Assembly (NCBI GenBank): GCA_038063515.1
Contig: JBBTUY010000003.1
Location: 1-39,893 of the forward strand
DNA: 39,893 nucleotides
From: Patescibacteria group bacterium
GTDB lineage: Bacteria > Patescibacteriota > Minisyncoccia > Phycocordibacterales > UBA9973
Direction: 5' to 3'
Shown: positions 1 through 39,893 of the stretch, in pieces
How positions within the stretch are numbered: the first letter of the stretch is position 1
Layout of the letters: each line of letters starts with the position of its first letter
Made by a program: the position numbers and the translations under genes
Notes under the pieces: generated by a model
The model's input: only the letters and a program-made list of their open reading frames with translations
Database searches by the model: none
Told to the model about the DNA's origin: nothing

Positions 1-55
1 AACCTGCCACCCCCTCATTGCAAATGAGGTGCTCTACCAGATGAGCTAACGGCCC
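1..55 (-). tRNA. tRNA-Ala (anticodon UGC), 5' part only; the 3' end lies beyond the window start
   Basis: The reverse complement reads GGGCCGT-TA-GCTC-ATCTGGTA-GAGC-A-CCTCA-TTTGCAA-TGAGG-GGGTG-GCAGG-TT. The acceptor, D arm and anticodon arm fold canonically, the 7-nt loop has TGC at positions 34-36, and G is at position 3. The T loop is cut by the window edge. Confidence 0.85.
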
Positions 56-272: not shown

Positions 273-344
273 TCCGAGGTAGCTCAGCGGTAGAGCGGTC
301 GCCTGTTAAGCGATTGGTCGTAGGTTCGATCCCTACCCTCGGAG
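273..344 (+). tRNA. tRNA-Asn (anticodon GUU)
   Basis: It folds as TCCGAGG-TA-GCTC-AGCGGTA-GAGC-G-GTCGC-CTGTTAA-GCGAT-TGGTC-GTAGG-TTCGATC-CCTAC-CCTCGGA-G. This is a full 72-nt cloverleaf with a GTTCGATC T loop. No CCA is encoded. Confidence 0.95.
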
Positions 345-368
345 CAGATAGCATTACATGGTATTTCT

Positions 369-7862: not shown

Positions 7863-8213
7863 ATGGATGCTTTAAAACTATTTACAGAGGAAAGACCTTG
7901 GGGTAAGTTTGAACAATTTACTCACAACGAGATAAGTACAATAAAGATAATCACAGTTAAAACAGGCGAGGCTTTTAGTTTGCAATCTCATAAAAATAGA
8001 AGAGAATTCTGGAAGATTTTGTCTGGTAGTCCCGAGGTCACTATTGGGGATAGTGTTGTGACGGCAAGTAAGGGTGATGAGTTTAATGTACCTCCGATGA
8101 CAAAACACCGCGTACGTTCTGTCGGAGTCGATACTGAAATACTAGAGATAGTATTAGGTATTTTTGATGAAAATGATATTACTCGCCTAGAAGACAAGTA
8201 TGGTCGTGTCTAA
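7863..8213 (+). CDS. Cupin domain protein related to the C-terminal cupin of type II phosphomannose isomerase
   Basis: RPWGKFEQF...SLQSHKNRREFWKILSG...HR fits the type II PMI (ManC C-terminal) cupin pattern. Confidence 0.7.
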   Translation: MDALKLFTEERPWGKFEQFTHNEISTIKIITVKTGEAFSLQSHKNRREFWKILSGSPEVTIGDSVVTASKGDEFNVPPMTKHRVRSVGVDTEILEIVLGIFDENDITRLEDKYGRV

Positions 8214-9363
8214 AAATAAAAAGATAATAAAGAAAATACCCAAATCTGCTAAAAAGAAAAAATTAGTTAAAAAAGTTGCGCCCAAGAAAATTGTAAAAGA
8301 AAATGTAAAGAAAATAGCGAAGAAAACAAAAAAGATATTAAAGAAAAAATCTTCTCATCTCGAACTAAAACGCTCCATTAAAAATCCTATAATAAGTCCT
8401 AGTGATAACCTCTGGGAATCCAAAGCCACATTTAACCCCACTGCACTGTATGCAGATGGGAAAGTGCACATTATCTATAGAGCCATAGGTGATAGTGATA
8501 ACTCTGTTTTAGGATATGCAGAAAGTAACGACGGTTTTACTATTCAAAATACTTTCCCTAAGCCTATATATTTTCATTTTATGAATAGAGGTAACAACAC
8601 TTCTGTTCCTAGTATTTCCTATGTTTCTGGAGGAGGCTGGGGAGGTGGCTGTGAAGATCCCAGAGTCACTTTGTTAGGAGATACGATATATATGACTTAT
8701 ACTGCATTTGATGGTTGGGGTTCTGTACGTATGGCTCTTACTTCTATAAGTTTAAAAGATTTTCTTGATAAGTGTTGGAATTGGAAAGAGCCTGTGCTGA
8801 TATCTCCACCAGGTGAGATACATAAAAACTGGGTACTTTTTCCAGAAAAGATAAATGGTAAATATGCTATTTTGCATAGTATATCTCCTACGATCATGAT
8901 AGATTATTTTAATTCACTTTCTGAATTAGATGGAGATAATTTCATACATAGCATTCATCAGAATAGTCCTCTCTGGATAAAGCGAGACAGGTTCACTCGT
9001 GGTGTCGGTCCTTCACCGATCGAGACAAAGTATGGCTGGCTCGTACTTTATCACAAGATGGAGAAAGACGAGACTTATAGATATAAACTCTGGGTGATGA
9101 TATTAGATAAAAAAGATCCTACAAAAGTTTTATACAATTCTACAGGTCCGATACTTGAGCCAGATTTGTGGTACGAAAATGAGGGATATAAATCAGGAGT
9201 AGTTTATTCGTGTGGAGTTGTTATAAAAGATGGTAAATTGTTTGTGTATTATGGTGGTGCTGACAAAGTTTCTGCAGTAGCGACAGCAGACTTGGGTAAA
9301 TTTTTAGAAGAACTTATACACCACAAAGTACTACCATTAAAGATTAACTCTATTAAGAAATAA
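8200..9363 (+). CDS. GH130-family glycosidase/phosphorylase-like protein with a Lys-rich N-terminal extension of about 55 aa
   Basis: NPIISPSDNLWESKATFNPTAL, GCEDPRV, YTAFDG and VYYGGADK are GH130 (beta-mannoside phosphorylase, DUF377) hallmarks. The N terminus reads KKIIKKIPKSAKKKKLVKKVAPKK and continues in the same style. The gene overlaps the upstream gene by 14 nt. Confidence 0.8.
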   Translation: MVVSKNKKIIKKIPKSAKKKKLVKKVAPKKIVKENVKKIAKKTKKILKKKSSHLELKRSIKNPIISPSDNLWESKATFNPTALYADGKVHIIYRAIGDSDNSVLGYAESNDGFTIQNTFPKPIYFHFMNRGNNTSVPSISYVSGGGWGGGCEDPRVTLLGDTIYMTYTAFDGWGSVRMALTSISLKDFLDKCWNWKEPVLISPPGEIHKNWVLFPEKINGKYAILHSISPTIMIDYFNSLSELDGDNFIHSIHQNSPLWIKRDRFTRGVGPSPIETKYGWLVLYHKMEKDETYRYKLWVMILDKKDPTKVLYNSTGPILEPDLWYENEGYKSGVVYSCGVVIKDGKLFVYYGGADKVSAVATADLGKFLEELIHHKVLPLKINSIKK

Positions 9364-9366
9364 TTT

Positions 9367-11316
9367 ATGTTTGTTGTAAAAAGATCTCACCATAATCCAA
9401 TAATAGTACCTGATAAAGACCATTATTGGGAGGCATATTCTACTTTCAATATGAGTGTTGTGAAAAAAGGTACTATATTTTACGGTGTATACCGTGCTAT
9501 TTCTGCAGGAGATAAATTGCGTGAGCCACAGCAAATCTCTACAATAGGCATAGGAAAGAGTAGCGATGGACGGCATTTCCGTGATCGTAAGCTTTTCATC
9601 ACACCTGTCGAGGAATGGGAAAAATATGGTTGTGAAGACCCACGCGTCACATACTTCGAGGGTAATTATTATACTTTTTATACCGCATTATCTAAATATC
9701 CTTTTGAGGCAAGTGGTATTAAGGTTGCGGTAGCTGTGTCTAAAGATTTAAATAAAATAAAAGAGCGTCACTTAGTAACTCCTTTTAATGCAAAAGCCAT
9801 GACTCTTTTTCCGAAGCGTGTGAATGGCAAGGTCACGGTCATACTTTCTGTAAATACAGACATGCCTCCTGCAAGCATAGCTATTGCACAAGCTGATAAA
9901 ATAGAAGAATTATGGGATCCAAAATTTTGGGAGTTGTGGTATGAGAATTTAGATAAACACACCATAGACTTAAGACGCTCACCATACGATCACATAGAAG
10001 TAGGAGCTACACCTGTCGAGACAAAATACGGCTGGCTCCTCGTGTATTCCCATATACAAAATTATTTTAGCGGCGGAGAAAATTTAAAAAGAATATTTGG
10101 TATTGAAGCAATACTTTTAGGTAAAGATAATTTATTAAAAATATTAGGACGTACACGTAGTCCCATTTTAGCCCCTCGCGAATCTTATGAGCTTTTAGGA
10201 CATCTTCCTGATATAGTTTTCCCTTCGGGGGCTATAGTTAAAAAAGATACGCTTTACATATATTACGGAGCAACAGATACGATTATATGTATGGCTCATG
10301 TAAATCTAACTGATCTTTTAGGTACGATGCGGTATGCTACGACTAATGATTGGCATTTTTTACGCTCTACTTCTAATCCTATTATTTCACCTAAAAAAGA
10401 AAATTTATGGGAATCAAAAGCTACGTTTAACCCAGCTTCTATATTGCTTAAAAATAAAATACACATCTTATATAGAACACTTTCGAATGATAATACTTCG
10501 TACATAGGTTATGCATCATCTAATGATGGTTTTAAAATAGATGAGAGATTAGAAGATCCTATATATGTGCCTAGGGAGGATTTTGAAAACAAAAAAGTTC
10601 CAGACGGAAACTCTGGTTGTGAGGATCCACGAGTTACAAAATTGGGTAAAGATATATACATGTGCTACACAGCTTTTGATGGTATTGGTCCACCGAGAGT
10701 CGCTACAACTTCTATAACTGAAAAAGACTTTTTAAATAAAAAATGGAATTGGTCAAAACCGATACTAATAACCCCTGCTGGTTTTGATGACAAAGATACC
10801 TGCATTTTCCCTGAGAAAATAAATGGTAAATATTTCTTTTTACATAGAGTGGGAAGTGAAATATGTGGAGATTATTTAAATTCACTAAACTTTGAAACAG
10901 AAACGGTGAAGAAATGCATCAGGATCATAGGTCCTAGGATAAATAGCTGGGATAATTTGAAAGTCGGTATATCAGCACCACCACTTAAGACCAAGGCTGG
11001 TTGGCTCGTACTTTATCATGGTGTCTCAGATACGCATAGTACATACCGTGTCGGTTTTATCCTTCTTGATTTGAAAGACCCGACCATCGTACTTGCACGT
11101 ACTACGGACTCTATCTTCGAGCCAGTGGAACCATATGAAAAGATAGGTATTGTAAACAATGTTGTTTTTCCATGTGGCATGGTGGAGAAGAAGGGTTTGC
11201 TCTACATATATTACGGAGGGGCTGATACGGTGACAGGTGTCGCCACTATGAAATTAAGTGTTATTTTAAATGCTCTTACAAGAGAAATTAAACTTGATAA
11301 ACAAAATAAAAAATAA
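9367..11316 (+). CDS. Tandem double GH130-family protein
   Basis: Two complete GH130 modules are present. Each has NPII.P...WE...(S/A)TFN, GCEDPRVT, YTA(L/F) and IYYG(A/G)(T/A)D motifs (aa 1-320 and 330-640). Confidence 0.8.
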   Translation: MFVVKRSHHNPIIVPDKDHYWEAYSTFNMSVVKKGTIFYGVYRAISAGDKLREPQQISTIGIGKSSDGRHFRDRKLFITPVEEWEKYGCEDPRVTYFEGNYYTFYTALSKYPFEASGIKVAVAVSKDLNKIKERHLVTPFNAKAMTLFPKRVNGKVTVILSVNTDMPPASIAIAQADKIEELWDPKFWELWYENLDKHTIDLRRSPYDHIEVGATPVETKYGWLLVYSHIQNYFSGGENLKRIFGIEAILLGKDNLLKILGRTRSPILAPRESYELLGHLPDIVFPSGAIVKKDTLYIYYGATDTIICMAHVNLTDLLGTMRYATTNDWHFLRSTSNPIISPKKENLWESKATFNPASILLKNKIHILYRTLSNDNTSYIGYASSNDGFKIDERLEDPIYVPREDFENKKVPDGNSGCEDPRVTKLGKDIYMCYTAFDGIGPPRVATTSITEKDFLNKKWNWSKPILITPAGFDDKDTCIFPEKINGKYFFLHRVGSEICGDYLNSLNFETETVKKCIRIIGPRINSWDNLKVGISAPPLKTKAGWLVLYHGVSDTHSTYRVGFILLDLKDPTIVLARTTDSIFEPVEPYEKIGIVNNVVFPCGMVEKKGLLYIYYGGADTVTGVATMKLSVILNALTREIKLDKQNKK

Positions 11317-31093: not shown

Positions 31094-32146
31094 ATGGAAA
31101 AATTTATCAATTGGATTTTAATCTTAGTTTTACTAGTAGTTCCACAGGTTGGTTTTACAGCTGAATGTGCTCCTGCGCCTGTTTCTATTATCAGTGATTC
31201 TTCTATAACCGTCGAAGGTGGTGGTACAGCTGTCCCTACACATACAAGTGTACTCTGGACTACTATCTCTGGCGCTATATGGATCTGGGATACAGAATTT
31301 GTTTCAAATCCTAACATAAATGAAGAAGTTACTTTTGTAAAATCTTTTGAGGTAGCAAATACTGTACACAATGCTAATTTAGAGATTGCTGGGGATGATT
31401 TTTATGAAGTTACTTTAAACGGTAGTATTGTTGCGTCAGAATACGGTGAAGGTAATTTTGCAGCTATAAAAACCTTTAACCTAAACAGTAACATACAGTC
31501 TGGAACAAATACTCTAAAAATAAAGATAATAAATGCAAAGTATTTTTTTGACGGACAAGGTACAAGTACAAACAATCCAGGAGGGGTTATTTTTAAAGTT
31601 ACTGTAGATGCTGAGGATTGTTCTAATAGTTCAAATGGTGGTGGATCATCTGGTGGTAATTCTTCAGGAAGTAAGATGAAAGATACTAATGGAGGAAATG
31701 ATACAAATACAACAGGTGGAGCTAGTAATACTCCTTCTAATTCTCTTGCAAAACCTACAAATCCTCTTATTTCAACTATAGCAGCTTTCACTGCTGATAA
31801 TAATACTCCTATAGATGGGGAAGTTCTCGGAGCAGAAGATTTGATGGATAAGATGGATGTTATGGGTAAAGATGAACCTCTCACTGCTCTTGCTCTTCCT
31901 GGCTTCAGTATATTGGGAGAAGTGTATTGTTCTCTTATTGCTTTAGCGATACTTCTTATTTTATACATAATAGGAAGACTTATCTTTACGAATGATGAGG
32001 ATTATAAAAAGAGGATACAGCTTATAATCACAGGCTCACTTATAACTATCATTTTTCTATTCTTATTTAATTATACATGTCTCCTAATACCTCTTATAGT
32101 CTTGTGTGTGATACTTTGTGGCTTAATATATACTAAGAAAATATAA
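31094..32146 (+). CDS. Secreted beta-sandwich-like protein with a Gly/Ser/Asn/Thr linker and C-terminal TM helices
   Basis: A signal peptide (ILILVLLVVPQVGFTAEC) is followed by a domain of about 150 aa, a low-complexity linker (NSSNGGGSSGGNSSGS...) and two C-terminal hydrophobic helices. Confidence 0.55.
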   Translation: MEKFINWILILVLLVVPQVGFTAECAPAPVSIISDSSITVEGGGTAVPTHTSVLWTTISGAIWIWDTEFVSNPNINEEVTFVKSFEVANTVHNANLEIAGDDFYEVTLNGSIVASEYGEGNFAAIKTFNLNSNIQSGTNTLKIKIINAKYFFDGQGTSTNNPGGVIFKVTVDAEDCSNSSNGGGSSGGNSSGSKMKDTNGGNDTNTTGGASNTPSNSLAKPTNPLISTIAAFTADNNTPIDGEVLGAEDLMDKMDVMGKDEPLTALALPGFSILGEVYCSLIALAILLILYIIGRLIFTNDEDYKKRIQLIITGSLITIIFLFLFNYTCLLIPLIVLCVILCGLIYTKKI

Positions 32147-32172: not shown

Positions 32173-32202
32173 AAAAAACAGCTGGTTCGCCAGCTGTTTT
32201 TT
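32173..32202 (+). terminator. Intrinsic (potentially bidirectional) terminator
   Basis: aaaaaa-CAGCTGG-ttcg-CCAGCTG-tttttt: a 7-bp GC-rich stem with a TTCG loop, an A run upstream and a T run downstream. Confidence 0.8.
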
Positions 32203-32266
32203 ATTAATTATACACAAAAATGCTTTGGTATTTAATATAAAAGAGTTATAATTTATATGTTGGCAA

Positions 32267-35200
32267 ATGAAATTAAATAATAAAAAGTTTAGTAAAGGAA
32301 TTATCTCTAAAACGTTTTTTTACGTTAAGTTTTTTATCTTTGTTTTTATTATAATTCTAAATGCTTTCTCTTTACATATAGTACATGCTACAGCTGGAGT
32401 TCCTAAGATTATTAATTTTCAAGGACGCTTGCTAGACTCTAGTGGGAACTTGCTCGGTGCTTCTTCAGGTACAGATTATTGTTATAAATTTTCTATTTAT
32501 GATGCGACAACAGCTGGATCAAAGATCTGGCCTTCAGGCTCTCCATCTACGATGACGATATCGACACGAAGCGGAGTATTCGATGCTAGTGTTGGAGATA
32601 CAGGTGCAGGGGGGGATACTTTAGATCTTACTTTCACTGATGATCAAGCTTTTATGGATGTGCAGGTTGCGACAAAAGTGGGAGCTTCTTGTACGACTGG
32701 AGCTGATGAAGTTTTTGAATCACTTACTCCTCGTCCACAAATAGTTTCATCTGCATTTGCTATTAATTCTGGCACTGTCGGAGGTTTTACTCCCGCACAG
32801 TCAGCTACAAATAGTCAGATCCCAGTTCTTACTTCTGGGGCTGTAGTTTTAGGTCATGCGACTACTGCTGGAGTCTCTTCAGTAGGAGCAGCTCCACTTG
32901 CAGTGGATGCTGGAAGTTCGGGTGTTTTAAATTTAAATAACACATCTACCGGAAATATTTTATTAGGAGGGGGCTCGGCTTCCACTGGCTGTACTTTAAC
33001 AAATTCCACTGGTGCATTTGCATGTGCTGCGGGACTTACGGGAACAGCTGTTACAGATTCTGGGCTTACAGCTACCAGAATAACTTTTGCTGGAACTGGG
33101 GGGCTACTCTCTGATGATGCAGATCTAACTTTTGCTACAGATACATTAACAGCGACAAAATTAAATGCTACTACTAATATCCAACTAAACGGTACTATAG
33201 TTTTAAGTGGTACAACTCTCGGCTCAACTATTGTATCCTCTTCTCTTACTTCTATCGGTACACTTATTTCTGGTGCTGTACCTGCATCTCTTGTAACTGC
33301 TGGAACTTTCGGTACAGGAGCTTATGTTATGGATACATCAATTAGAGTACCACTTATTATAGGCAGCAGTTTTACTACGGGTGATTTAACTTTGCAAACT
33401 ACTTCAGGTGTAGGTGCAACAGGGGCAGATATGCATTTCTTAGTAGGTAATAATGGTGCTACTGAAGCTATGACTATTTTAAATAGTGGTAATGTCGGTA
33501 TTGGGACGACGAGTCCTCAAAGAATACTTCACCTAGAAGTTTCAAGTGGGGAGGCAACAATTTATGCTCGTTCTACAGATGCCACAGGTTACACAGGCAT
33601 GAACATGTACAACGATACAGGTGATTTAACTGGTAGCTTACAAATAGGAAACAGCAATGCTAGTGAAGCGGCACTTAGAAACAATATGTTCATGGGTGCT
33701 CGTCAAGCAACAGGTAAACTTATCTTTGTACGTGACACAGGAGCTACAGAAATGGCTAGATTTGATGAGAATGGTAAATTTGGTATCGGTATCACCACCC
33801 CAGCCTCCCTCCTCCACATCCAAGGAGGACTAACAACCACAGGCTCTGTACTTACCCTAGGAACAAACGAAACTACCGTAGTAGCAAATGATGTCTTAGG
33901 CAGAGTAAACTTTTATGCACCCCTAGATGCTGCAGGAACAGACGCGAATCTTGTAGCTGGTTCCATAGTAGCTCAAGCAGAAGGTACGTTCTCTTCTTCC
34001 AGTAATGCCACTTCCTTGCTCTTCCAAACTGGCTCCAGTGAAGTTGCTACTACTAAGATGGCTATTACTAGTGGTGGGAATGTTGGCATTGGGACAACGA
34101 CTCCAACAACCAAGTTGTCTGTTTCTCAAACTGATAATTTTGGTACCTATACAGATCCACTTGGTGTGTCCGTTACCTCTTTTGCATATTTAAATCCTAC
34201 TATAACCTCTGCATCATTTGGAACACCATTTCGTGTTTTTTCACAAGAAACTGTTCTCAATCCATCGTCGGACCCTGGCACTAAGGTTATAAATGGTATA
34301 GTTTCGCAAATAACTGTACCCTCTGGCAGTGTTAATCTATCAGGTGTAACTATGAGAGGTCTTAACTTTACCGTACAACATGGAGGAACTGGTGCATTAA
34401 ATGCTTTAGTTGGATTACTTGGAAATGCAACTAATAGGACGACCGGTTCTGTGACAACAGCGACTGGTGGTCAATTAACATTTAATAACCTTAGTACTGG
34501 TACAATTACGACAGCTTACGGATTGAACGTCTCAGACATTACTAATGCTGGAACAATTACTAATACATACGGTGTATATGTCGGTGATATTACAGCAGGT
34601 ACACAGACTAACACACCATTTTCATTTTATGCGTCGGATGCTAGTGCTTATAACTATTTCGCAGGGAGTGTGGGTATAGGGACAACGGCACCAGGCAGAA
34701 AGCTACACATTTCAGATGCAGGAGATTGGGGTGGAGCAATCACTCTTCAAAATACTGGTTCGGGAGGAGAACAATATTCTTTATTAGTAGGAAATACTGC
34801 AAGTGGTCAAGCAGGAAAGTTTGCAATATATGATGAGGGTGAAGATTTTAGGTTTGTAATTGATACTAATGGTAAGGTCGGTATAGGATTAACAGCTCCA
34901 GGTCAAGAACTTGAAGTTCAAGGTGATGTTCGTCTTGATTTGAATGGTACCGCGACTACTATTGCTTTATGTCATGCTAATGCTGATACTACTGATGAAG
35001 ATATTGTCGACTGTAGTGGAGCTCCCTCTGACTTAGCTGAGTGGTATGAGACTACAGAAGGAGTAGAAGCTAGTGATATCGTGGCTTTCACTGAAGATAT
35101 ACTAACTTATCAGGAACAACAATTTGATCCGTTCACAGGTCAATCTACTGGAGAAAATCTTGAAAGGAAGCTTAGTATTTTAGCTAAGGCTACCAAAGAG

Positions 35201-36343
35201 AATACTAATAAAATTGCAGGTGTTATCTCAACATCTCCTAATCAAGTTTATGGTGAAGATGTACTCAAAAGTAGTGCTAAAAATCCTCAGCCACTTGCTA
35301 TAGCAGGTCGTGTATTAGTGAAAGTTGATCCCGACTCGCTACCTATTTCTCCAGGAGATTATCTAACATTATCGAATAAACCCGGCAAGGCAACGAAAGC
35401 CATAAGAGCAGGAACTGTAATAGGTAAAGCTCTTGATTCATGGGCTCCTAATACTAATTCTTCTACTGTCTTGTTTTTTATTGAACAAGGGTATTATAAA
35501 GGAGAAAGCCTAAGAGACTTTGCTGGAATCGATGTTGATAATATTTCAGACTCAGGTGCTATAATTTTAGCTAAATTCTTGAGCGACCAAGAAACACAAG
35601 AAGGAGTAAATGGAGAAGACTTAAATGTTTCTGAATTACTCACTGATCGTATAGCTGCGGGACTCGAAGTCATAACACCAAAATTAACAACATCAGAAAT
35701 TGAAACAGAAAACATACATGTGTCTGGTGACGCGATTTTTGAAGGCCTCACATTCTTTAAAGGCACTCCGGAGCTTCCTGGTAAGGTCACGTTTGATACA
35801 GAAGTCGAATTTAATATAACACCAACATTCAACAAAGATACTGCTGGTTTTGCTTTAATCAAGGAAGGAGACAAGAGCGTCCGTGTCTCTTTTGAAAAAC
35901 CTTACACCACTACACCTGTAGTTGCTACCTCTATTTCATTTGAAGCCACAGACAATATAGACGAGATAAATGCTGATGCTTTATTTTCTCAAAATATAAC
36001 TTCAATTGTTTTAGAAAAAGATGAGACAGGTTTCACTATAATGCTTAATAAAATAGCACCACAAAATATACGTTTTTCATGGATTGCTCTTAGTGTTAAA
36101 GATGCGAATACTTCTGAGAGCGAAGATACTGGTCTAGAATTTATCTCTCCAGATGGAAGTTCTAGTGGAGGTCCAGATATGACACCAGAGCCTGACCTAC
36201 CATCAGATTCTACTCCAGTTGTAGAGCCTACACCTCCACTTGCAGATCCGACATTAGAAGTTATACCAGAACCAGAAGTGAATATAAACGAAGAAGATAT
36301 TGAGAGTATGGCAGAGCAATCGACTCCAGAACCTGAATTGTAA
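32267..36343 (+). CDS. 1358-aa secreted fibre-like surface protein with five G-x-(V/F)-G-I-G-x-T-x-P repeat motifs
   Basis: It has an N-terminal signal/anchor ([20 protein letters not shown]) and is rich in Thr, Gly, Ser and Ala. The motifs are [10 protein letters not shown] (33488-33517), [10 protein letters not shown] (33773-33802), [10 protein letters not shown] (34076-34105), [10 protein letters not shown] (34663-34692) and [10 protein letters not shown] (34871-34900). These are typical of tail-fibre-like proteins. The C-terminal tail is Pro/Glu-rich. Confidence 0.75.
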
Positions 36344-36347
36344 AATA

Positions 36348-36356
36348 TGTTATGAT
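36348..36356 (+). promoter_or_regulatory. Extended -10 TGtTATGAT, 6 nt upstream of ATG 36363
   Basis: The motif was read directly. It supports the 36363 start rather than the track start at 36300. Confidence 0.5.
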
Positions 36357-36362
36357 AAGATA

Positions 36363-36824
36363 ATGTTTAGTATAAATTTTTTAATTTATGTAATAAGATT
36401 TATCAGACGGTATGTTGTATTTCTCACCATACTTTTTTTGATACTTCTTAGTACAGTAATTTTTTATTTTTATAATAAAAGTACTATAAATAAAGATCCT
36501 GATATAATTGCTGAAGGTAAGGCTTTGGTTTTAGTGGAGACTGTTGGCAAGTTAGCTTTTTTACCTCAAAATGAGATACCGACTATTGCTGTTGTTTCTG
36601 ATCCTCTTTTATTGAAAGATCAACTATTTTTCATTGATGCGAAAAAGGGGGATATGGTCCTTATTTATGCAAATAAGAAAAAAGCTGTGTTATACGACCC
36701 TATAGCTAATAAAATAGTGAACATGTCTACTATAAATTCTAGCAGTAAACCTAAAGATTTATTATTAAATTCTAGAGAGAATCAAGCTTCAGATTCTTCT
36801 TCATCAGGCGACAGCCAATTTTAA
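36363..36824 (+). CDS. Small single-pass membrane protein, function unknown
   Basis: An N-terminal TM helix (VVFLTILFLILLSTVIFYFY) is followed by a soluble domain of about 110 aa. It lies inside the surface-protein operon. Confidence 0.55.
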   Translation: MFSINFLIYVIRFIRRYVVFLTILFLILLSTVIFYFYNKSTINKDPDIIAEGKALVLVETVGKLAFLPQNEIPTIAVVSDPLLLKDQLFFIDAKKGDMVLIYANKKKAVLYDPIANKIVNMSTINSSSKPKDLLLNSRENQASDSSSSGDSQF

Positions 36825-36832
36825 TTTTTAAG

Positions 36833-37678
36833 ATGAATGATTTTAAATTTAGAAAATATTTTTTACAAAAGCGTACAAGATTTTTGATTTTGTTTCTTGT
36901 TATTTTTTTATTTGTAGTTAAATATGATTTAGTAGTTTTTGCTGCAGAGCTTACTAGTACGAATTTCATTATTCGTGATCCAATAGTTGGAACAGGTGGT
37001 GGGTACGGAAGCTCTTCTAGTTTTCAGTTAATTTCTGCGGGGCATAATATTTTATCTGGAGTTGGTTCTTCTACTTCTTTCTTAACCCGTTACGGTTTTT
37101 TATATTATGAGGATGAAGAGGATCCAACGATTACTTTCGATATTGATGTTACATCTGCTGATACTTGTAGTACCACAGAAAGCGGAACACCTTATACAGT
37201 AGCCTTAGGTACTATTACAACAGGAGATACAAAAGTCTCTGGTGCAACAGACTCTATTAATAGTATTTGTCTAGATTTAGATACTAATGCTTCTAGTGGT
37301 GCAGTCGTAACAGTTTTTAATGAAAATGGAGCAAATGGTTTAGCCTCATCTTCTGTGCCAGCTGATAATATAAATAGTATTGATGGATCAGTTGCAAATG
37401 GTACAGAAAATTATGGTCTTTGCATTGTTTCAACTAGTGCTACCACAGGTACATTAGATGATGAGGGTGGATACAATGCAGATACATGCGCAGTAAATTC
37501 TGAGACCAATAATGTGCAGGCATTATCTACGGTAGGGGAGAATATTTTTGATACTAATGGTGCTGCTATTGTTGGTGGACGTGGTCAGGTTTCTGTTCAG
37601 AGTTCCATTAGTTCTACTACTCCAGCACACAATGATTACAGAGATACTGTTACCTTTATAGCTACAAGTACTTTTTAG
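36833..37678 (+). CDS. Secreted protein, paralogue 1, with a pilin-like C-terminal domain of about 185 aa
   Basis: It has a signal/anchor segment. The C-terminal domain (DTCSTTESGTPYTVALGTITT...DYRDTVTFIATSTF) is shared with the next gene. Confidence 0.7.
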   Translation: MNDFKFRKYFLQKRTRFLILFLVIFLFVVKYDLVVFAAELTSTNFIIRDPIVGTGGGYGSSSSFQLISAGHNILSGVGSSTSFLTRYGFLYYEDEEDPTITFDIDVTSADTCSTTESGTPYTVALGTITTGDTKVSGATDSINSICLDLDTNASSGAVVTVFNENGANGLASSSVPADNINSIDGSVANGTENYGLCIVSTSATTGTLDDEGGYNADTCAVNSETNNVQALSTVGENIFDTNGAAIVGGRGQVSVQSSISSTTPAHNDYRDTVTFIATSTF

Positions 37679-37705
37679 ATTGATAATTATAGTCATAATA
37701 GCAAG

Positions 37706-37714
37706 TTATCCACA
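37706..37714 (+). promoter_or_regulatory. Perfect DnaA-box consensus TTATCCACA in an intergenic region
   Basis: It is an exact 9-mer and the second of two copies in the window. Confidence 0.3.
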
Positions 37715-37780
37715 GTCTAAATAGAATGATATAAGTTAAAAAATTTGTTATAATAAATAGGTAAATTTATCAACAAAAAT

Positions 37781-38911
37781 ATGATTAAAAAATATATCAG
37801 ACTGTTTTCTTCTAGGTTTATAAGTGGAACTATTATAATAGCTTTATTGTCTCTTATGATTATTCCAAGCTTGGCAATGGCTGCATCAGTCACTGCTTTT
37901 TCAGTTCTTTTATCTAGAGAGAAGGCCTCTACTCTTGCAAATCAAACTATAACTTTTACAACTCCTACAGGAGTAGCTTCTGGTCAGACTATAATTCTTA
38001 CTTATAACAATAGTACTAGTGTCGCGACAGCTCTTGATTTTGAAGATATTGATCTTACAGATGATGGCACGAACGTAACTCTTGCTGCATCTCCATCTGG
38101 AGCTACTTGGGGTGTGGTGCGTACGTCAAGTACGGTGATTACTTTTACAAATGGTACTACAGCTGTAGCAGCTGGTAGTGTGATTGCAATTGAGATAGGT
38201 ACACATGCTACTACGGGTGCCACTGGAGTAGAACAGATCACAAATGGATCTGCAGGTACTACGACACTTACACTTTCTGGAACTTTCGGTGATTCCGGTA
38301 CAGTAGCTATGTCTATCATTGATGATGATCGAGTTTCTATTACAGCTACTGTAAACTCTTCTCTCACTTTTGATCTTGATACGACTGCAGCCGATACTTG
38401 TTCTACTACAGAGTCAGGTACAGCTTATACTGTGGCTTTGGGAACTATCACTACGACTGACACTCGGGTCTCTGGTGCTACAGATAGTATAAACAATATT
38501 TGTGTAGATTTAGATACAAATGCTTCTGGCGGTGCAGCTGTAACTGTTTCTAATACTAATGGTGCAAGTGGCCTGGTTTCAACTTCTGTTACAGCTGATG
38601 ATATAGATAGTTCTGATGGTTCTGTGGGAGACGGTACAGAAAATTATGGTTTATGTATAGTTACTAGTACTGCTACCACAGGTACATTAGATGATGAAGG
38701 TGGATACAATGCAGATACGTGCGCAGCAAACTCTGAGACTAATAACGTACAAGCATTATCCACTACTCCTGAAACTATATTTGATACAAATAGTGCTCCA
38801 ATAGCTGGTGGACGTGGACAGATAGCTGTGAATGCTTCTATTACTGGAGTACAGCCAGCTCATACAGACTATACAGATACTCTAACTTTTGTAGCTACAG
38901 GAACTTTCTAA
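37781..38911 (+). CDS. Secreted protein, paralogue 2: an extra N-terminal Ig-like domain plus the shared pilin-like C-terminal domain
   Basis: The signal peptide ends in LAMAAS. The C-terminal domain (DTCSTTESGTAYTVALGTITT...DYTDTLTFVATGTF) is shared with the previous gene. Confidence 0.7.
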   Translation: MIKKYIRLFSSRFISGTIIIALLSLMIIPSLAMAASVTAFSVLLSREKASTLANQTITFTTPTGVASGQTIILTYNNSTSVATALDFEDIDLTDDGTNVTLAASPSGATWGVVRTSSTVITFTNGTTAVAAGSVIAIEIGTHATTGATGVEQITNGSAGTTTLTLSGTFGDSGTVAMSIIDDDRVSITATVNSSLTFDLDTTAADTCSTTESGTAYTVALGTITTTDTRVSGATDSINNICVDLDTNASGGAAVTVSNTNGASGLVSTSVTADDIDSSDGSVGDGTENYGLCIVTSTATTGTLDDEGGYNADTCAANSETNNVQALSTTPETIFDTNSAPIAGGRGQIAVNASITGVQPAHTDYTDTLTFVATGTF

Positions 38912-38920
38912 ATTTAAGTA

Positions 38921-39893
38921 ATGAAGAATTATCTAAAACACAAAGCCTTGTTTGCACTTTTTGTGGTAATAATACTTTTTGTTTTTATTTACCCAAATGA
39001 TATTTATGCACTTAGTTTGACGCCTACTCGTTTTGAATTACGTGGTGATCCAGGTGAGATTATCACACAAGAGATGTTTATTAATAATGAGACAGGAACT
39101 GCTGAGACTTACTATTCTTCTTTTGCAAACTTTGAAGCACAAGGTGAGTCAGGTAGTCCAGCTTTTACAGATCCTAAAGATGACCTTGGTACTTGGATGA
39201 GTACAGATATAAGTTCTGTATATTTACCTTCTAAAACCAATAAGATTGTTCCATTTACTATTACTATTCCAAAAGATGCTGAGCCAGGAGGTCACTTCGC
39301 TGTAATTTTTTGGGGTACTACTCCAGCAGGAGGTGATACTGGGGTTTCTGTGGGAGCTAAAACTGGAATACTAGTCTTACTGTCTGTAAGTGGTGATGTG
39401 AAAGAAGAAGCAGGTTTGCTTAATTTTAATACTAAAGATAATCAATTTTTATACAATACTTTACCTGTTTCTTTTGAATATAGATTTAAAAATGCTGGAG
39501 GAGACCGCATAAAGCCTCAAGGTAAGATCACTATACGTGATACTATATTTTTTCCCGCAGATTATGTCGATGCAAATGAAGTAGAGGGAAATGTGCTTCC
39601 AGGTAGTACTCGAAAATTTAATATTGATTGGATAAAATACGAAAGACCTGCGAGTTATGTGGCACCTACTCAAATATTTAAAAATTTTTTCAGCAAAGTA
39701 AATTATCAATGGAAGAACTTTGCAATGGGTCTTTATTCTGCAAATCTAAACTTAGAGTATGGTTTGCAGGCACAACATGTGCAAAAGACTATTTTCTTTT
39801 TTGTTTTTCCATGGCAGCTTATCATAGTGATGACTCTCGTTCTCTTCATTGTACTTTTTGGTGGCTGGAAAATAATAAAACGTTACAATAAAT
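38921..39893 (+). CDS. DUF916/DUF3324 (CscA-like, WxL-cluster-type) cell-surface protein with a C-terminal TM anchor; the 3' end runs off the window
   Basis: This ORF is not in the supplied track. I translated it by hand with no stop from ATG 38921 to the window end. It has a signal peptide (ALFALFVVIILFVFIYPNDIYA). LTPTRFELRGDPGEIITQEMFINNETG and ITIPKDAEPGGHFAVIFWG follow the DUF916 pattern. VLPGSTRKF follows the DUF3324 pattern. The terminal FFFVFPWQLIIVMTLVLFIVLFGGWKIIKRYNK is a TM helix with a basic tail. Confidence 0.7.
   Translation, partial: MKNYLKHKALFALFVVIILFVFIYPNDIYALSLTPTRFELRGDPGEIITQEMFINNETGTAETYYSSFANFEAQGESGSPAFTDPKDDLGTWMSTDISSVYLPSKTNKIVPFTITIPKDAEPGGHFAVIFWGTTPAGGDTGVSVGAKTGILVLLSVSGDVKEEAGLLNFNTKDNQFLYNTLPVSFEYRFKNAGGDRIKPQGKITIRDTIFFPADYVDANEVEGNVLPGSTRKFNIDWIKYERPASYVAPTQIFKNFFSKVNYQWKNFAMGLYSANLNLEYGLQAQHVQKTIFFFVFPWQLIIVMTLVLFIVLFGGWKIIKRYNK

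Follow-up and report, generated by a model that had tools for sequence, protein, structure and literature searches.

The DNA considered here is a stretch of 39,893 nucleotides (hereafter the window; contig JBBTUY010000003.1 of assembly GCA_038063515.1) from a Patescibacteria group bacterium, at the 3' end of which five open reading frames (ORFs), g1 to g5, lie on the + strand. They follow a terminator-like hairpin (32173..32202, +; a 13-bp stem with 5 G-C pairs, a loop of 4 and a T-rich tail), which parts them from the upstream gene g0, and are separated from each other by gaps of 19, 8, 102 and 9 nt. The first, g1 (32267..36343, +), encodes 1358 amino acids (aa), g2 (36363..36824, +) encodes 153 aa from its ATG, or 174 aa from an alternative TTG at 36300, g3 (36833..37678, +) encodes 281 aa and g4 (37781..38911, +) 376 aa. 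The last, g5 (38921..39893, +), reaches no stop codon by the end of the window, which holds 324 of its 338 codons; the full length of 338 aa was obtained from an identical contig, the protein of which (P0001) is 100% identical. All five products have an N-terminal hydrophobic segment in a Kyte-Doolittle scan. The set of five same-strand genes with short gaps behind a terminator, as described in the initial annotation, is therefore present, and the operon runs on beyond the window edge, the five genes being the upstream half of a cluster with at least nine. The cluster is interpreted below as a putative cell-surface assembly system, in which g5 would be the membrane anchor and g3 and g4 its secreted partners.

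The known system closest to this layout is that of the WxL/Csc clusters, whose members are a WxLIP (alias CscA or DufA; DUF916 and DUF3324 followed by a transmembrane (TM) segment), two WxL proteins, one short and one long (CscB/CscC), and CscD, a small protein with an LPXTG signal (PMC1534035; PMC9772566; PMC10599100). CscD is common in these clusters, though not obligatory, and the working criterion asks for one or more WxLIPs and two or more WxL proteins encoded within a few genes of each other (PMC10599100). The WxL domain has a length of 160-190 aa, is always C-terminal and is found on a short and a long protein beside the WxLIP (PMC10599100; PMC9772566). Published WxLIPs have 337-365 aa, and a hairpin of the WxLIP is predicted to complete the beta-sandwich of its partner (PMC10599100). 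WxL proteins are described as almost entirely limited to Lactobacillales and Bacillales (PMC10599100).

The plan and size of g5 are those of a WxLIP: a signal peptide, two immunoglobulin (Ig)-like domains and a TM segment within 338 aa, against 337-365 aa. Its hydrophobic segments lie at residues 3-34 and 289-320, the second of which (39785..39880, +) corresponds to a helix at residues 298-334 in the AlphaFold2 model and precedes a conserved basic tail that is cut off by the window edge. The model has a predicted local distance difference test score (pLDDT) of 74.5 and shows two beta-sandwich domains and the TM helix. The N-terminal Ig-like domain (residues 31-160; 39011..39400, +) resembles PGBD/DUF916 in hhalign, and the second (residues 161-292; 39401..39796, +), delimited by the AlphaFold2 strands, stands at the position of the HBD/DUF3324 of WxLIP. 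Two loops with pLDDT <50, at residues 76-78 and 138-143, are candidate flexible hairpins in this model. When the model was compared with the PDB using Foldseek, the best matches were the E. faecium WxLIP entries 9i25_C (E=3e-11) and then 9i1y_A (E=3.4e-10); 9i25 is the WxLIP from E. faecium locus A bound to the long WxL protein. The alignment with WxLIP has 290 columns against a 251-residue target and runs into the HBD in register.

The same relationship was found by profile comparison. The g5 family is large, with 9341 clusters at 50% identity at E<=1e-3 and 863 at E<=1e-30. It was represented by an alignment of 116 diverse members, taken as 50%-clustering representatives from an exhaustive HMMER search, while the WxLIP set (n=13) included sequences rebuilt from peptides in the supplement of PMC10599100, with the addition of ten plasmid genes annotated as "DUF916 and DUF3324" from Enterococcus, Lactococcus, Lactiplantibacillus, Bacillus and Listeria. 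At full length the two families aligned in hhalign with 98.5% and E=2.9e-15. Since the signal peptide and the TM segment inflate this score, the comparison was also made with the ectodomains only, giving 96.1% and E=3.5e-9 over 204 columns, and the alignment again continued into the HBD in register. The N-terminal domain of g5 against PGBD gave 97.2% (E=4e-11), with swapped-domain controls at 0.1-0.3%. A low-diversity version of the comparison, in which 49 close g5 relatives were set against three near-identical Enterococcus WxLIPs, gave 6% and is regarded as a false negative. In the reciprocal searches with hidden Markov models (HMMs), the g5 ectodomain model ranked the 12 WxLIP genes among 271 Firmicute ORFs ahead of every other ORF (E=7e-11 to 9e-3), with a leap to E of about 1 after the twelfth, and the WxLIP ectodomain model returned g5 orthologues as all of its best seven among 3604 Patescibacteria ORFs. 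WxLIP_PGBD was also the commonest weak Pfam match of the g5 family, found in 41 of the 49 close and 45 of the 116 diverse members, the best E among the latter being 2.9e-7. Profile searches of g5 against PDB sequences gave no match. The kinship of g5 and WxLIP hence rests on three independent lines, namely the fold, the profile-profile comparison and the reciprocal HMM searches, by each of which the remote homology is detectable.

Within the g5 family, two members, P0365 (686 aa) and P0396 (637 aa), have roughly double the usual length and three to four matched stretches, which suggests tandem or fused WxLIP-like units.

The proteins encoded directly upstream of g5 are paralogues with a common C-terminal domain, as had been noticed from the sequence alone, and the motifs quoted for it, (I/L)TFD(I/L)D...DTCSTTESGT at the start and Y.DT(V/L)TF(I/V)AT.TF at the end, were found in both. 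The C-terminal 182 aa of g3 (residues 100-281; 37130..37675, +) are 75% identical (E=4e-94) to residues 195-376 of g4 (38363..38908, +). The short secreted partner, g3, is made up of a signal peptide, an N-terminal region of about 60 aa and this module; the longer one, g4, has a signal peptide, an N-terminal beta-sandwich (residues 38-180; 37892..38320, +; pLDDT ~95) and the module, which is modelled as a jelly-roll-like beta-sandwich (pLDDT ~90-96) and is the proposed docking module. The whole AlphaFold2 model of g4 has a mean pLDDT of 89.4 and shows these two beta-sandwich domains. Both proteins are acidic, and Thr, Ser, Ala and Gly make up 41-51% of their residues. Pfam, NCBIfam, PHROG and PDB sequence searches of g2 to g4 gave nothing usable, and among PDB and viral structures Foldseek matched the g4 model only to two-Ig adhesins of a generic kind (TM-scores ~0.2); for a single domain, TTHA1873 was the best match (target-normalised TM-score 0.52).

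In related loci, the module has a length of about 165-185 aa, and of its 78 full-length matches, 77 stop five residues or fewer from the end of the protein. Among the 64 loci with two sizeable ORFs upstream of g5, there are 57 in which both ORFs end in such a shared module. Its carriers differ widely in size: they range from 260 to 2580 aa overall, with examples of 564, 634, 1180 and 2582 aa, and the first partner reaches 1978-2203 aa in several loci. Other lineages have an alternative type of the module, which is homologous to the window type (hhalign 97.1%, E=5e-11). Concerted evolution of the two modules of a locus was considered and rejected, as the best non-self match of a module is mostly an orthologue elsewhere (99 against 30) and the own-locus partner was the top match in only 9 of 116 cases; judged from these sequence comparisons, the g3 and g4 positions are stable orthologous lineages.

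Two loci, L058 and L082, were found to have one partner with the window-type module and one with the alternative type beside a single g5. Possibly one g5 takes modules of either type; alternatively, the module may have a receptor other than g5.

Several results weigh against the assignment of the cluster to the WxL/Csc kind, some of them concerning the anchor and others its presumed partners. For the anchor, other two-Ig proteins follow close behind WxLIP in the Foldseek search (RbmA 1e-9, CfaA 4e-9, CsuC 3e-8), so that its margin over them is only about 1.5-3 orders of magnitude. The second domain of g5 alone gave a non-significant 4.6-6.5% in hhalign against DUF3324 (E ~0.006-0.009; controls 0.19-0.56) and had no Pfam match to DUF3324/WxLIP_HBD (PF11797). 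The g5 of the window reached 12.6 bits (E=0.15) with Pfam WxLIP_PGBD (PF06030), far under the gathering threshold of 27.3 for this DUF916 model, and the Ig-like Pfam model fn3_5 matches the g5 family about as well as WxLIP_PGBD does. In addition, no positions of g5 discriminate the module type of its own locus; together with the two mixed loci, this means that there is no co-evolution signal for an interface of g5 with the module. The initial annotation had described g5 as having DUF916-like and DUF3324-like halves. The DUF916 half and the fold of the ectodomain bear this out, whereas the DUF3324 half is non-significant when taken alone. Overall, g5 is very probably homologous to WxLIP, mainly through the PGBD half and the general architecture.

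For the partners, no recognisable WxL similarity was found by Pfam, hhalign or HMM searches, and the suggestion that the two paralogues are a WxL-domain pair is not supported. No match to Pfam WxL (PF13731) was present among 49 g4 relatives, even at E<=10, and the module reached 0.1-1.3% in hhalign against 20 WxL domains, where the positive control, Lactobacillales WxL against Bacillus WxL, gave 98.2%. The set-ups comprised the full alignment, the window type, the alternative type and both types combined, as well as a Bacillus/Listeria WxL subset, the WxL domain only, global mode and low mact. HMM searches between module and WxL gave no match in either direction, and the WxL chain of 9i25 was absent from the top 50 Foldseek matches of the g4 model. 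Only faint in-register traces were seen, all non-significant: the last strand, module Y..tLT(F/Y) against WxL Y..LtW.L, at E=0.04, and the first half of the alternative type at E=0.017 (controls 0.08-0.97). The terminal strand of the module reads TLTF(V/I)A and has no W-x-L motif. The module nevertheless behaves like a WxL domain in its size, in its extreme C-terminal site and in being carried by a short and a longer protein upstream of the anchor. It is either a WxL domain that has diverged past recognition or an analogous replacement. Further points on the same side are the small protein g2, which has an N-terminal TM segment and lacks the LPXTG sorting signal of CscD, and the absence of the module from g1 in this genome.

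At the upstream edge of the cluster, g1 was described in the initial annotation as tail-fibre-like, and this was borne out by matches to PHROG tail-fibre families (phrog_9942, E=1.5e-13; phrog_18345, E=1.6e-10) and to Bdellovibrio fibre proteins in the PDB (8ond, which is bd2133, E=5.7e-5; 8ojn, E=2e-3; three repeats aligned). The repeats, of the GNVGIGTxxP...LHV type known from phage tail fibres and Bdellovibrio fibre proteins, occupy residues 366-688 (33362..34330, +). A hydrophobic segment at residues 11-45 indicates that the protein is secreted or N-terminally anchored. Towards the C terminus, residues 1205-1274 (35879..36088, +) weakly resemble an H-type lectin (Pfam H_lectin, E=5.2e-4, 20.5 bits against a gathering threshold of 24) and precede a tail rich in Pro and Glu; the S74 and G2 chaperone models of Pfam, named in the initial annotation, gave no match to g1 at E<=1. 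Unlike a phage tail fibre, g1 is chromosomal, has an N-terminal signal or anchor and sits in the variable slot of a surface cluster with no phage context. Proteins like it occur in only 27 of 80 related loci, and the slot is usually held by some giant gene of 1000-2500 aa. Because g1 in this genome is without the C-terminal module and different giants take the same slot elsewhere, it is treated as variable cargo. The following gene, g2, has a lone hydrophobic segment at residues 6-39 and no LPXTG motif anywhere in its sequence; homologues of 127-172 aa are found at the same position in 36 of the 80 loci.

The downstream half of the cluster was read from L001, a 13.6-kb groundwater contig in ENA (sample ERZ1292630) that agrees with the final 3559 bases of the window at every position (3559/3559) and prolongs the locus by 10 kb with the genes g6 to g10. 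On this contig, taken for the rest of the window's own, the cluster continues into dockerin, cohesin-like and Rhs/Tc-like genes. The 304-aa product of g6 has a signal peptide, Ig (Big_6) domains and a C-terminal dockerin-like Ca-binding segment with two repeats of the form DxNxDxxxxxxDF. Dockerin_1 (PF00404) was matched by 28 of 30 g6 relatives, with a best E of 1.5e-8, and the family profile matched the PDB dockerin 2y3n_B (E=3e-6); the organism's own g6 reached 17.9 bits, under the gathering threshold of 22.9. The next three genes, g7, g8 and g9 (286, 390 and 425 aa), each encode a signal peptide, an N-terminal cohesin-like domain and a C-terminal TM helix. Pfam Cohesin (PF00963) was matched by g9 with 27.4 bits, over the gathering threshold of 24.1, g7 and g8 are its paralogues, and 9 of 30 g8 relatives also match Cohesin (best E=1e-9). 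Directly after these genes, g10 (L001:7907-13603) encodes more than 1899 aa of a secreted protein with SpvB, TcdB_toxin_midN, FG-GAP and RHS repeats and, judged by these domains, would be a Tc-toxin or Rhs-like shell protein. In related loci the place of g10 is taken by other giants, such as the LVIVD-repeat protein of 1575 aa in L002.

A scan of one genome per species gave 78 loci, to which L001 and L002 were added to make 80, and the presence of each gene was scored by ORF-level phmmer with the proteins of the window. All 80 loci have a match to g5, 78 to g6, 75 to each of g7, g8 and g9, and 73 to g4; the numbers fall to 54 for g3, 36 for g2 and 27 for g1. The order, a variable giant of 1000-2500 aa followed by g2, g3, g4, g5, g6, g7 and g8, is near-invariant across the 78 species-level genomes, almost all of which are named as Patescibacteria groups. 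Conserved co-occurrence in related genomes, on which the proposal of a surface operon had been made to depend, was thus observed. It had also been supposed that the organism might be of the candidate phyla radiation type, and all named relatives of g4 and g5 belong to Paceibacterota, Nomurabacteria, Yanofskybacteria and similar Patescibacteria groups. The identity of g5 across the listed named groups is 55-69%.

When the cluster is compared with WxL/Csc clusters, the likeness lies in the anchor and in the layout. Just as WxL proteins stand beside a WxLIP, g3 and g4 share a domain of about 180 aa at the extreme C terminus and are encoded beside g5. The parallel in gene order also holds, with a large protein, a small membrane protein, a short partner, a long partner and an anchor; on the E. 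innesii plasmid the order is a giant protein, a small LPXTG protein, three WxL genes, WxLIP and a sortase, so that the large surface protein and the small membrane protein stand upstream in the same order in both. The differences are that the host phylum is Patescibacteria and not Bacillota, that no sortase gene was found among the cluster genes scanned, and that the cluster is joined to a cohesin-dockerin set, which WxL clusters lack. This set in turn recalls the cellulosome of Clostridia, with a Cohesin domain in g9 and its paralogues and a dockerin-like end in g6. However, scaffoldins are multi-cohesin proteins with SLH or sortase anchoring, whereas g7 to g9 are single-cohesin and TM-anchored, and the dockerin protein g6 carries Ig (Big_6) domains and not enzymes.

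On the basis of these comparisons, the following model is proposed. The five genes would make up the upstream half of a conserved chromosomal cluster for cell-surface assembly in Patescibacteria (Paceibacteria, Nomurabacteria and relatives). The anchor would be g5, a type-I membrane protein and distant homologue of WxLIP (CscA), and the secreted g3 and g4, each ending in the same beta-sandwich module of about 180 aa, its short and longer partners. The module may dock non-covalently on the PGBD-like domain of g5, probably by a flexible g5 hairpin that completes the beta-sandwich of the module, as predicted for WxLIP and WxL, and proteins of very different size could be held at the surface in this way. 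A second kind of anchoring would be provided by the g6 dockerin and two or three TM-anchored cohesin-like proteins (g7-g9), which may hold g6 and possibly other dockerin proteins. The giants at the edges are taken as variable cargo, tail-fibre-like here (g1) and LVIVD-repeat or Rhs/Tc-like elsewhere, and would be likely to make contact with host cells. The system as a whole would then display fibres and adhesins for host contact. That the cluster encodes such a non-covalent surface-display system of the WxL/Csc kind, with a different partner module, cohesin-dockerin anchoring and another phylum as its home, is considered on balance somewhat probable; physical binding of g5 to the module, strand insertion and a role in host attachment are inferred. 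A bolder version can be put forward only tentatively and is thought rather doubtful: an ancient, phylum-wide surface-assembly machine with an ancestry common with Firmicute WxL/WxLIP, serving as an organelle that recognises, holds and attacks the host. There, a WxLIP-type anchor and membrane cohesins would mount exchangeable proteins bearing the module or a dockerin, among them fibres as well as toxin-like giants with lengths up to about 2500 aa, and the module would be an unrecognised WxL-equivalent family of surface-anchoring domains.

Other functions were weighed against the display model. The cluster might build the cell envelope itself, with g3 and g4 as abundant lattice proteins of an S-layer held by g5 and the cohesin-like anchors. 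The conservation of g5 is unusually high for a surface protein, the cluster is near-universal in the 78 genomes in which it was found, the partners have the acidic, Thr/Ser/Ala/Gly-rich composition given above, and g5 does not diverge with module type, as would be expected of a housekeeping anchor. On the other hand, no likeness to known S-layer proteins or SLH domains was seen, and the variable, fibre- or toxin-like nature of the flanking giants speaks for interaction with other cells; the S-layer explanation is considered unlikely. A donor-strand pilus, in which g5 would be a chaperone similar to PapD or CsuC, g3 and g4 pilins that polymerise and g1 perhaps the tip, corresponds to another suggestion of the initial annotation, namely SCPU/Csu-type pilins with a PapD-like chaperone. 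Foldseek of g5 indeed finds class-5 and archaic chaperones (CfaA and CsuC as above, and EcpB at 1e-6), the ectodomain shares their two-Ig fold, PapD_C is weakly matched by 2 of 49 g4 relatives, and the strand complementation of chaperone-usher pili is the binding principle proposed here too; as strand insertion has also been proposed for WxLIP (PMC10599100), the mechanisms are related in principle. The likeness is confined to a generic two-Ig fold, however. WxLIP ranks above all chaperones and alone has the TM anchor and the size in common with g5, which is tethered to the membrane and not soluble. No usher-like protein is present in g1 or g6-g10, and no Usher or PapD family match was obtained in g1-g10 (Pfam). 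The organism is monoderm, the partners give no pilin-family signal, the g4 module is modelled as a complete sandwich (pLDDT ~90-96) with no obvious missing strand, and its occurrence on 2000-aa proteins suits an anchoring tag better than a polymerising pilin. The pilus is accordingly held to be improbable to a still greater degree than the S-layer.

It was also considered that there may be no functional system at all, the genes being unrelated, adjacent Ig-fold proteins or a prophage tail-fibre module and the likeness to WxLIP generic. The matches of g1 to phage tail-fibre families fit this, Ig-like domains cross-match many families (fn3_5, NPCBM_assoc, FixG_C) and many two-Ig proteins reach Foldseek E<1e-6. 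Yet the gene order is kept in 78 species-level genomes, the reciprocal HMM searches were clean (12 of 12 WxLIPs first, followed by E of about 1), the domain-swap controls were negative, g2-g5 match no PHROG family and the likeness of the g4 model to viral structures is weak and generic. The surroundings are those of housekeeping genes: the rest of the window encodes DnaE, the histidyl-tRNA synthetase HisRS, an NDH-2-type oxidoreductase, two GH130 phosphorylases, a transketolase subunit and tRNA-Asn, and the window is ordinary chromosome and not a mobile element. A prophage origin was rejected on the conserved order, the housekeeping surroundings and the lack of PHROG matches for g2-g5, and the absence of any system is regarded as very unlikely.

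Patescibacteria account for much of the diversity of bacteria and live attached to other cells; to our knowledge, type IV pili apart, almost nothing is known of the way in which their surface is built and their hosts are held. The analysis turns a block of hypothetical proteins into a testable model with a cluster that keeps its order in at least 78 species-level genomes, an anchor that has a relative of solved structure (9i1y, 9i25) and a portable module, by which the proteins displayed in any genome can be catalogued. The WxLIP family is also taken past Lactobacillales and Bacillales, the orders with described WxL clusters (PMC10599100), and this bears on the origin of the WxL/Csc system. 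In the incomplete literature covered, no paper was found that links DUF916 or WxL with Patescibacteria or describes this cluster, and an earlier description is possible.

Two promoter-like sites were noticed in the region, each with 10 of 12 consensus matches: TTGGTA-16-TATAAT at 32225..32252 (+), 15 nt before the ATG of g1, and a site with an extended -10 TG at 37726..37754 (+), inside the 102-nt gap between g3 and g4. As such sites are not enriched over shuffled sequence (24 found in the region, 30 expected), neither is counted as functional evidence. The gene upstream of the hairpin, g0 (31094-32146, +), ends just ahead of it and encodes a 350-aa secreted protein that is rich in Gly, Ser, Asn and Thr and has several C-terminal hydrophobic segments. 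Its fimbrial-like matches are weak (NCBIfam PRK15262, E=0.0036), and a homologue is present in only 1 of the 80 related loci, so that g0 lies outside the conserved cluster. Farther upstream, the two GH130 genes form a pair at 8200-11316 (+), encoding 387 and 649 aa of the beta-1,4-mannooligosaccharide phosphorylase family, the longer one with two matched stretches; this sugar-phosphorylase pair stands in a genome expected to be metabolically sparse. Near its start, the window has tRNA-Asn (GTT) and a second tRNA cut by the window start, at positions 1-55 (-) and 273-345 (+).

Some observations were also made on the Firmicute clusters used for comparison. In three independent Enterococcus-type assemblies (L004:8001-9133, L005:8001-9136 and L006:5036-6117), a frameshift close to one and the same Lys-rich stretch, ITKKG, breaks the WxLIP gene in two, and many WxLIP halves are present in the protein database, where P0241-P0252 are fragments. 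The frameshift could be A-tract phase variation or a recurrent sequencing or assembly error. On plasmids of Bacillus mycoides and Listeria (L014:1-6960 and L015:3353-10738), WxL/WxLIP genes adjoin genes for pilus or secretion ATPases: L014 has CpaB and CpaF/VirB11, and L015 an ATPase of the type II secretion system/type IV pilus/type IV secretion system (T2SS/T4P/T4SS) family together with a thioester-domain protein. The WxL proteins of these two loci end in degenerate motifs (LTYSIVTGP, VTVAVVQGP) and not in W-x-L.

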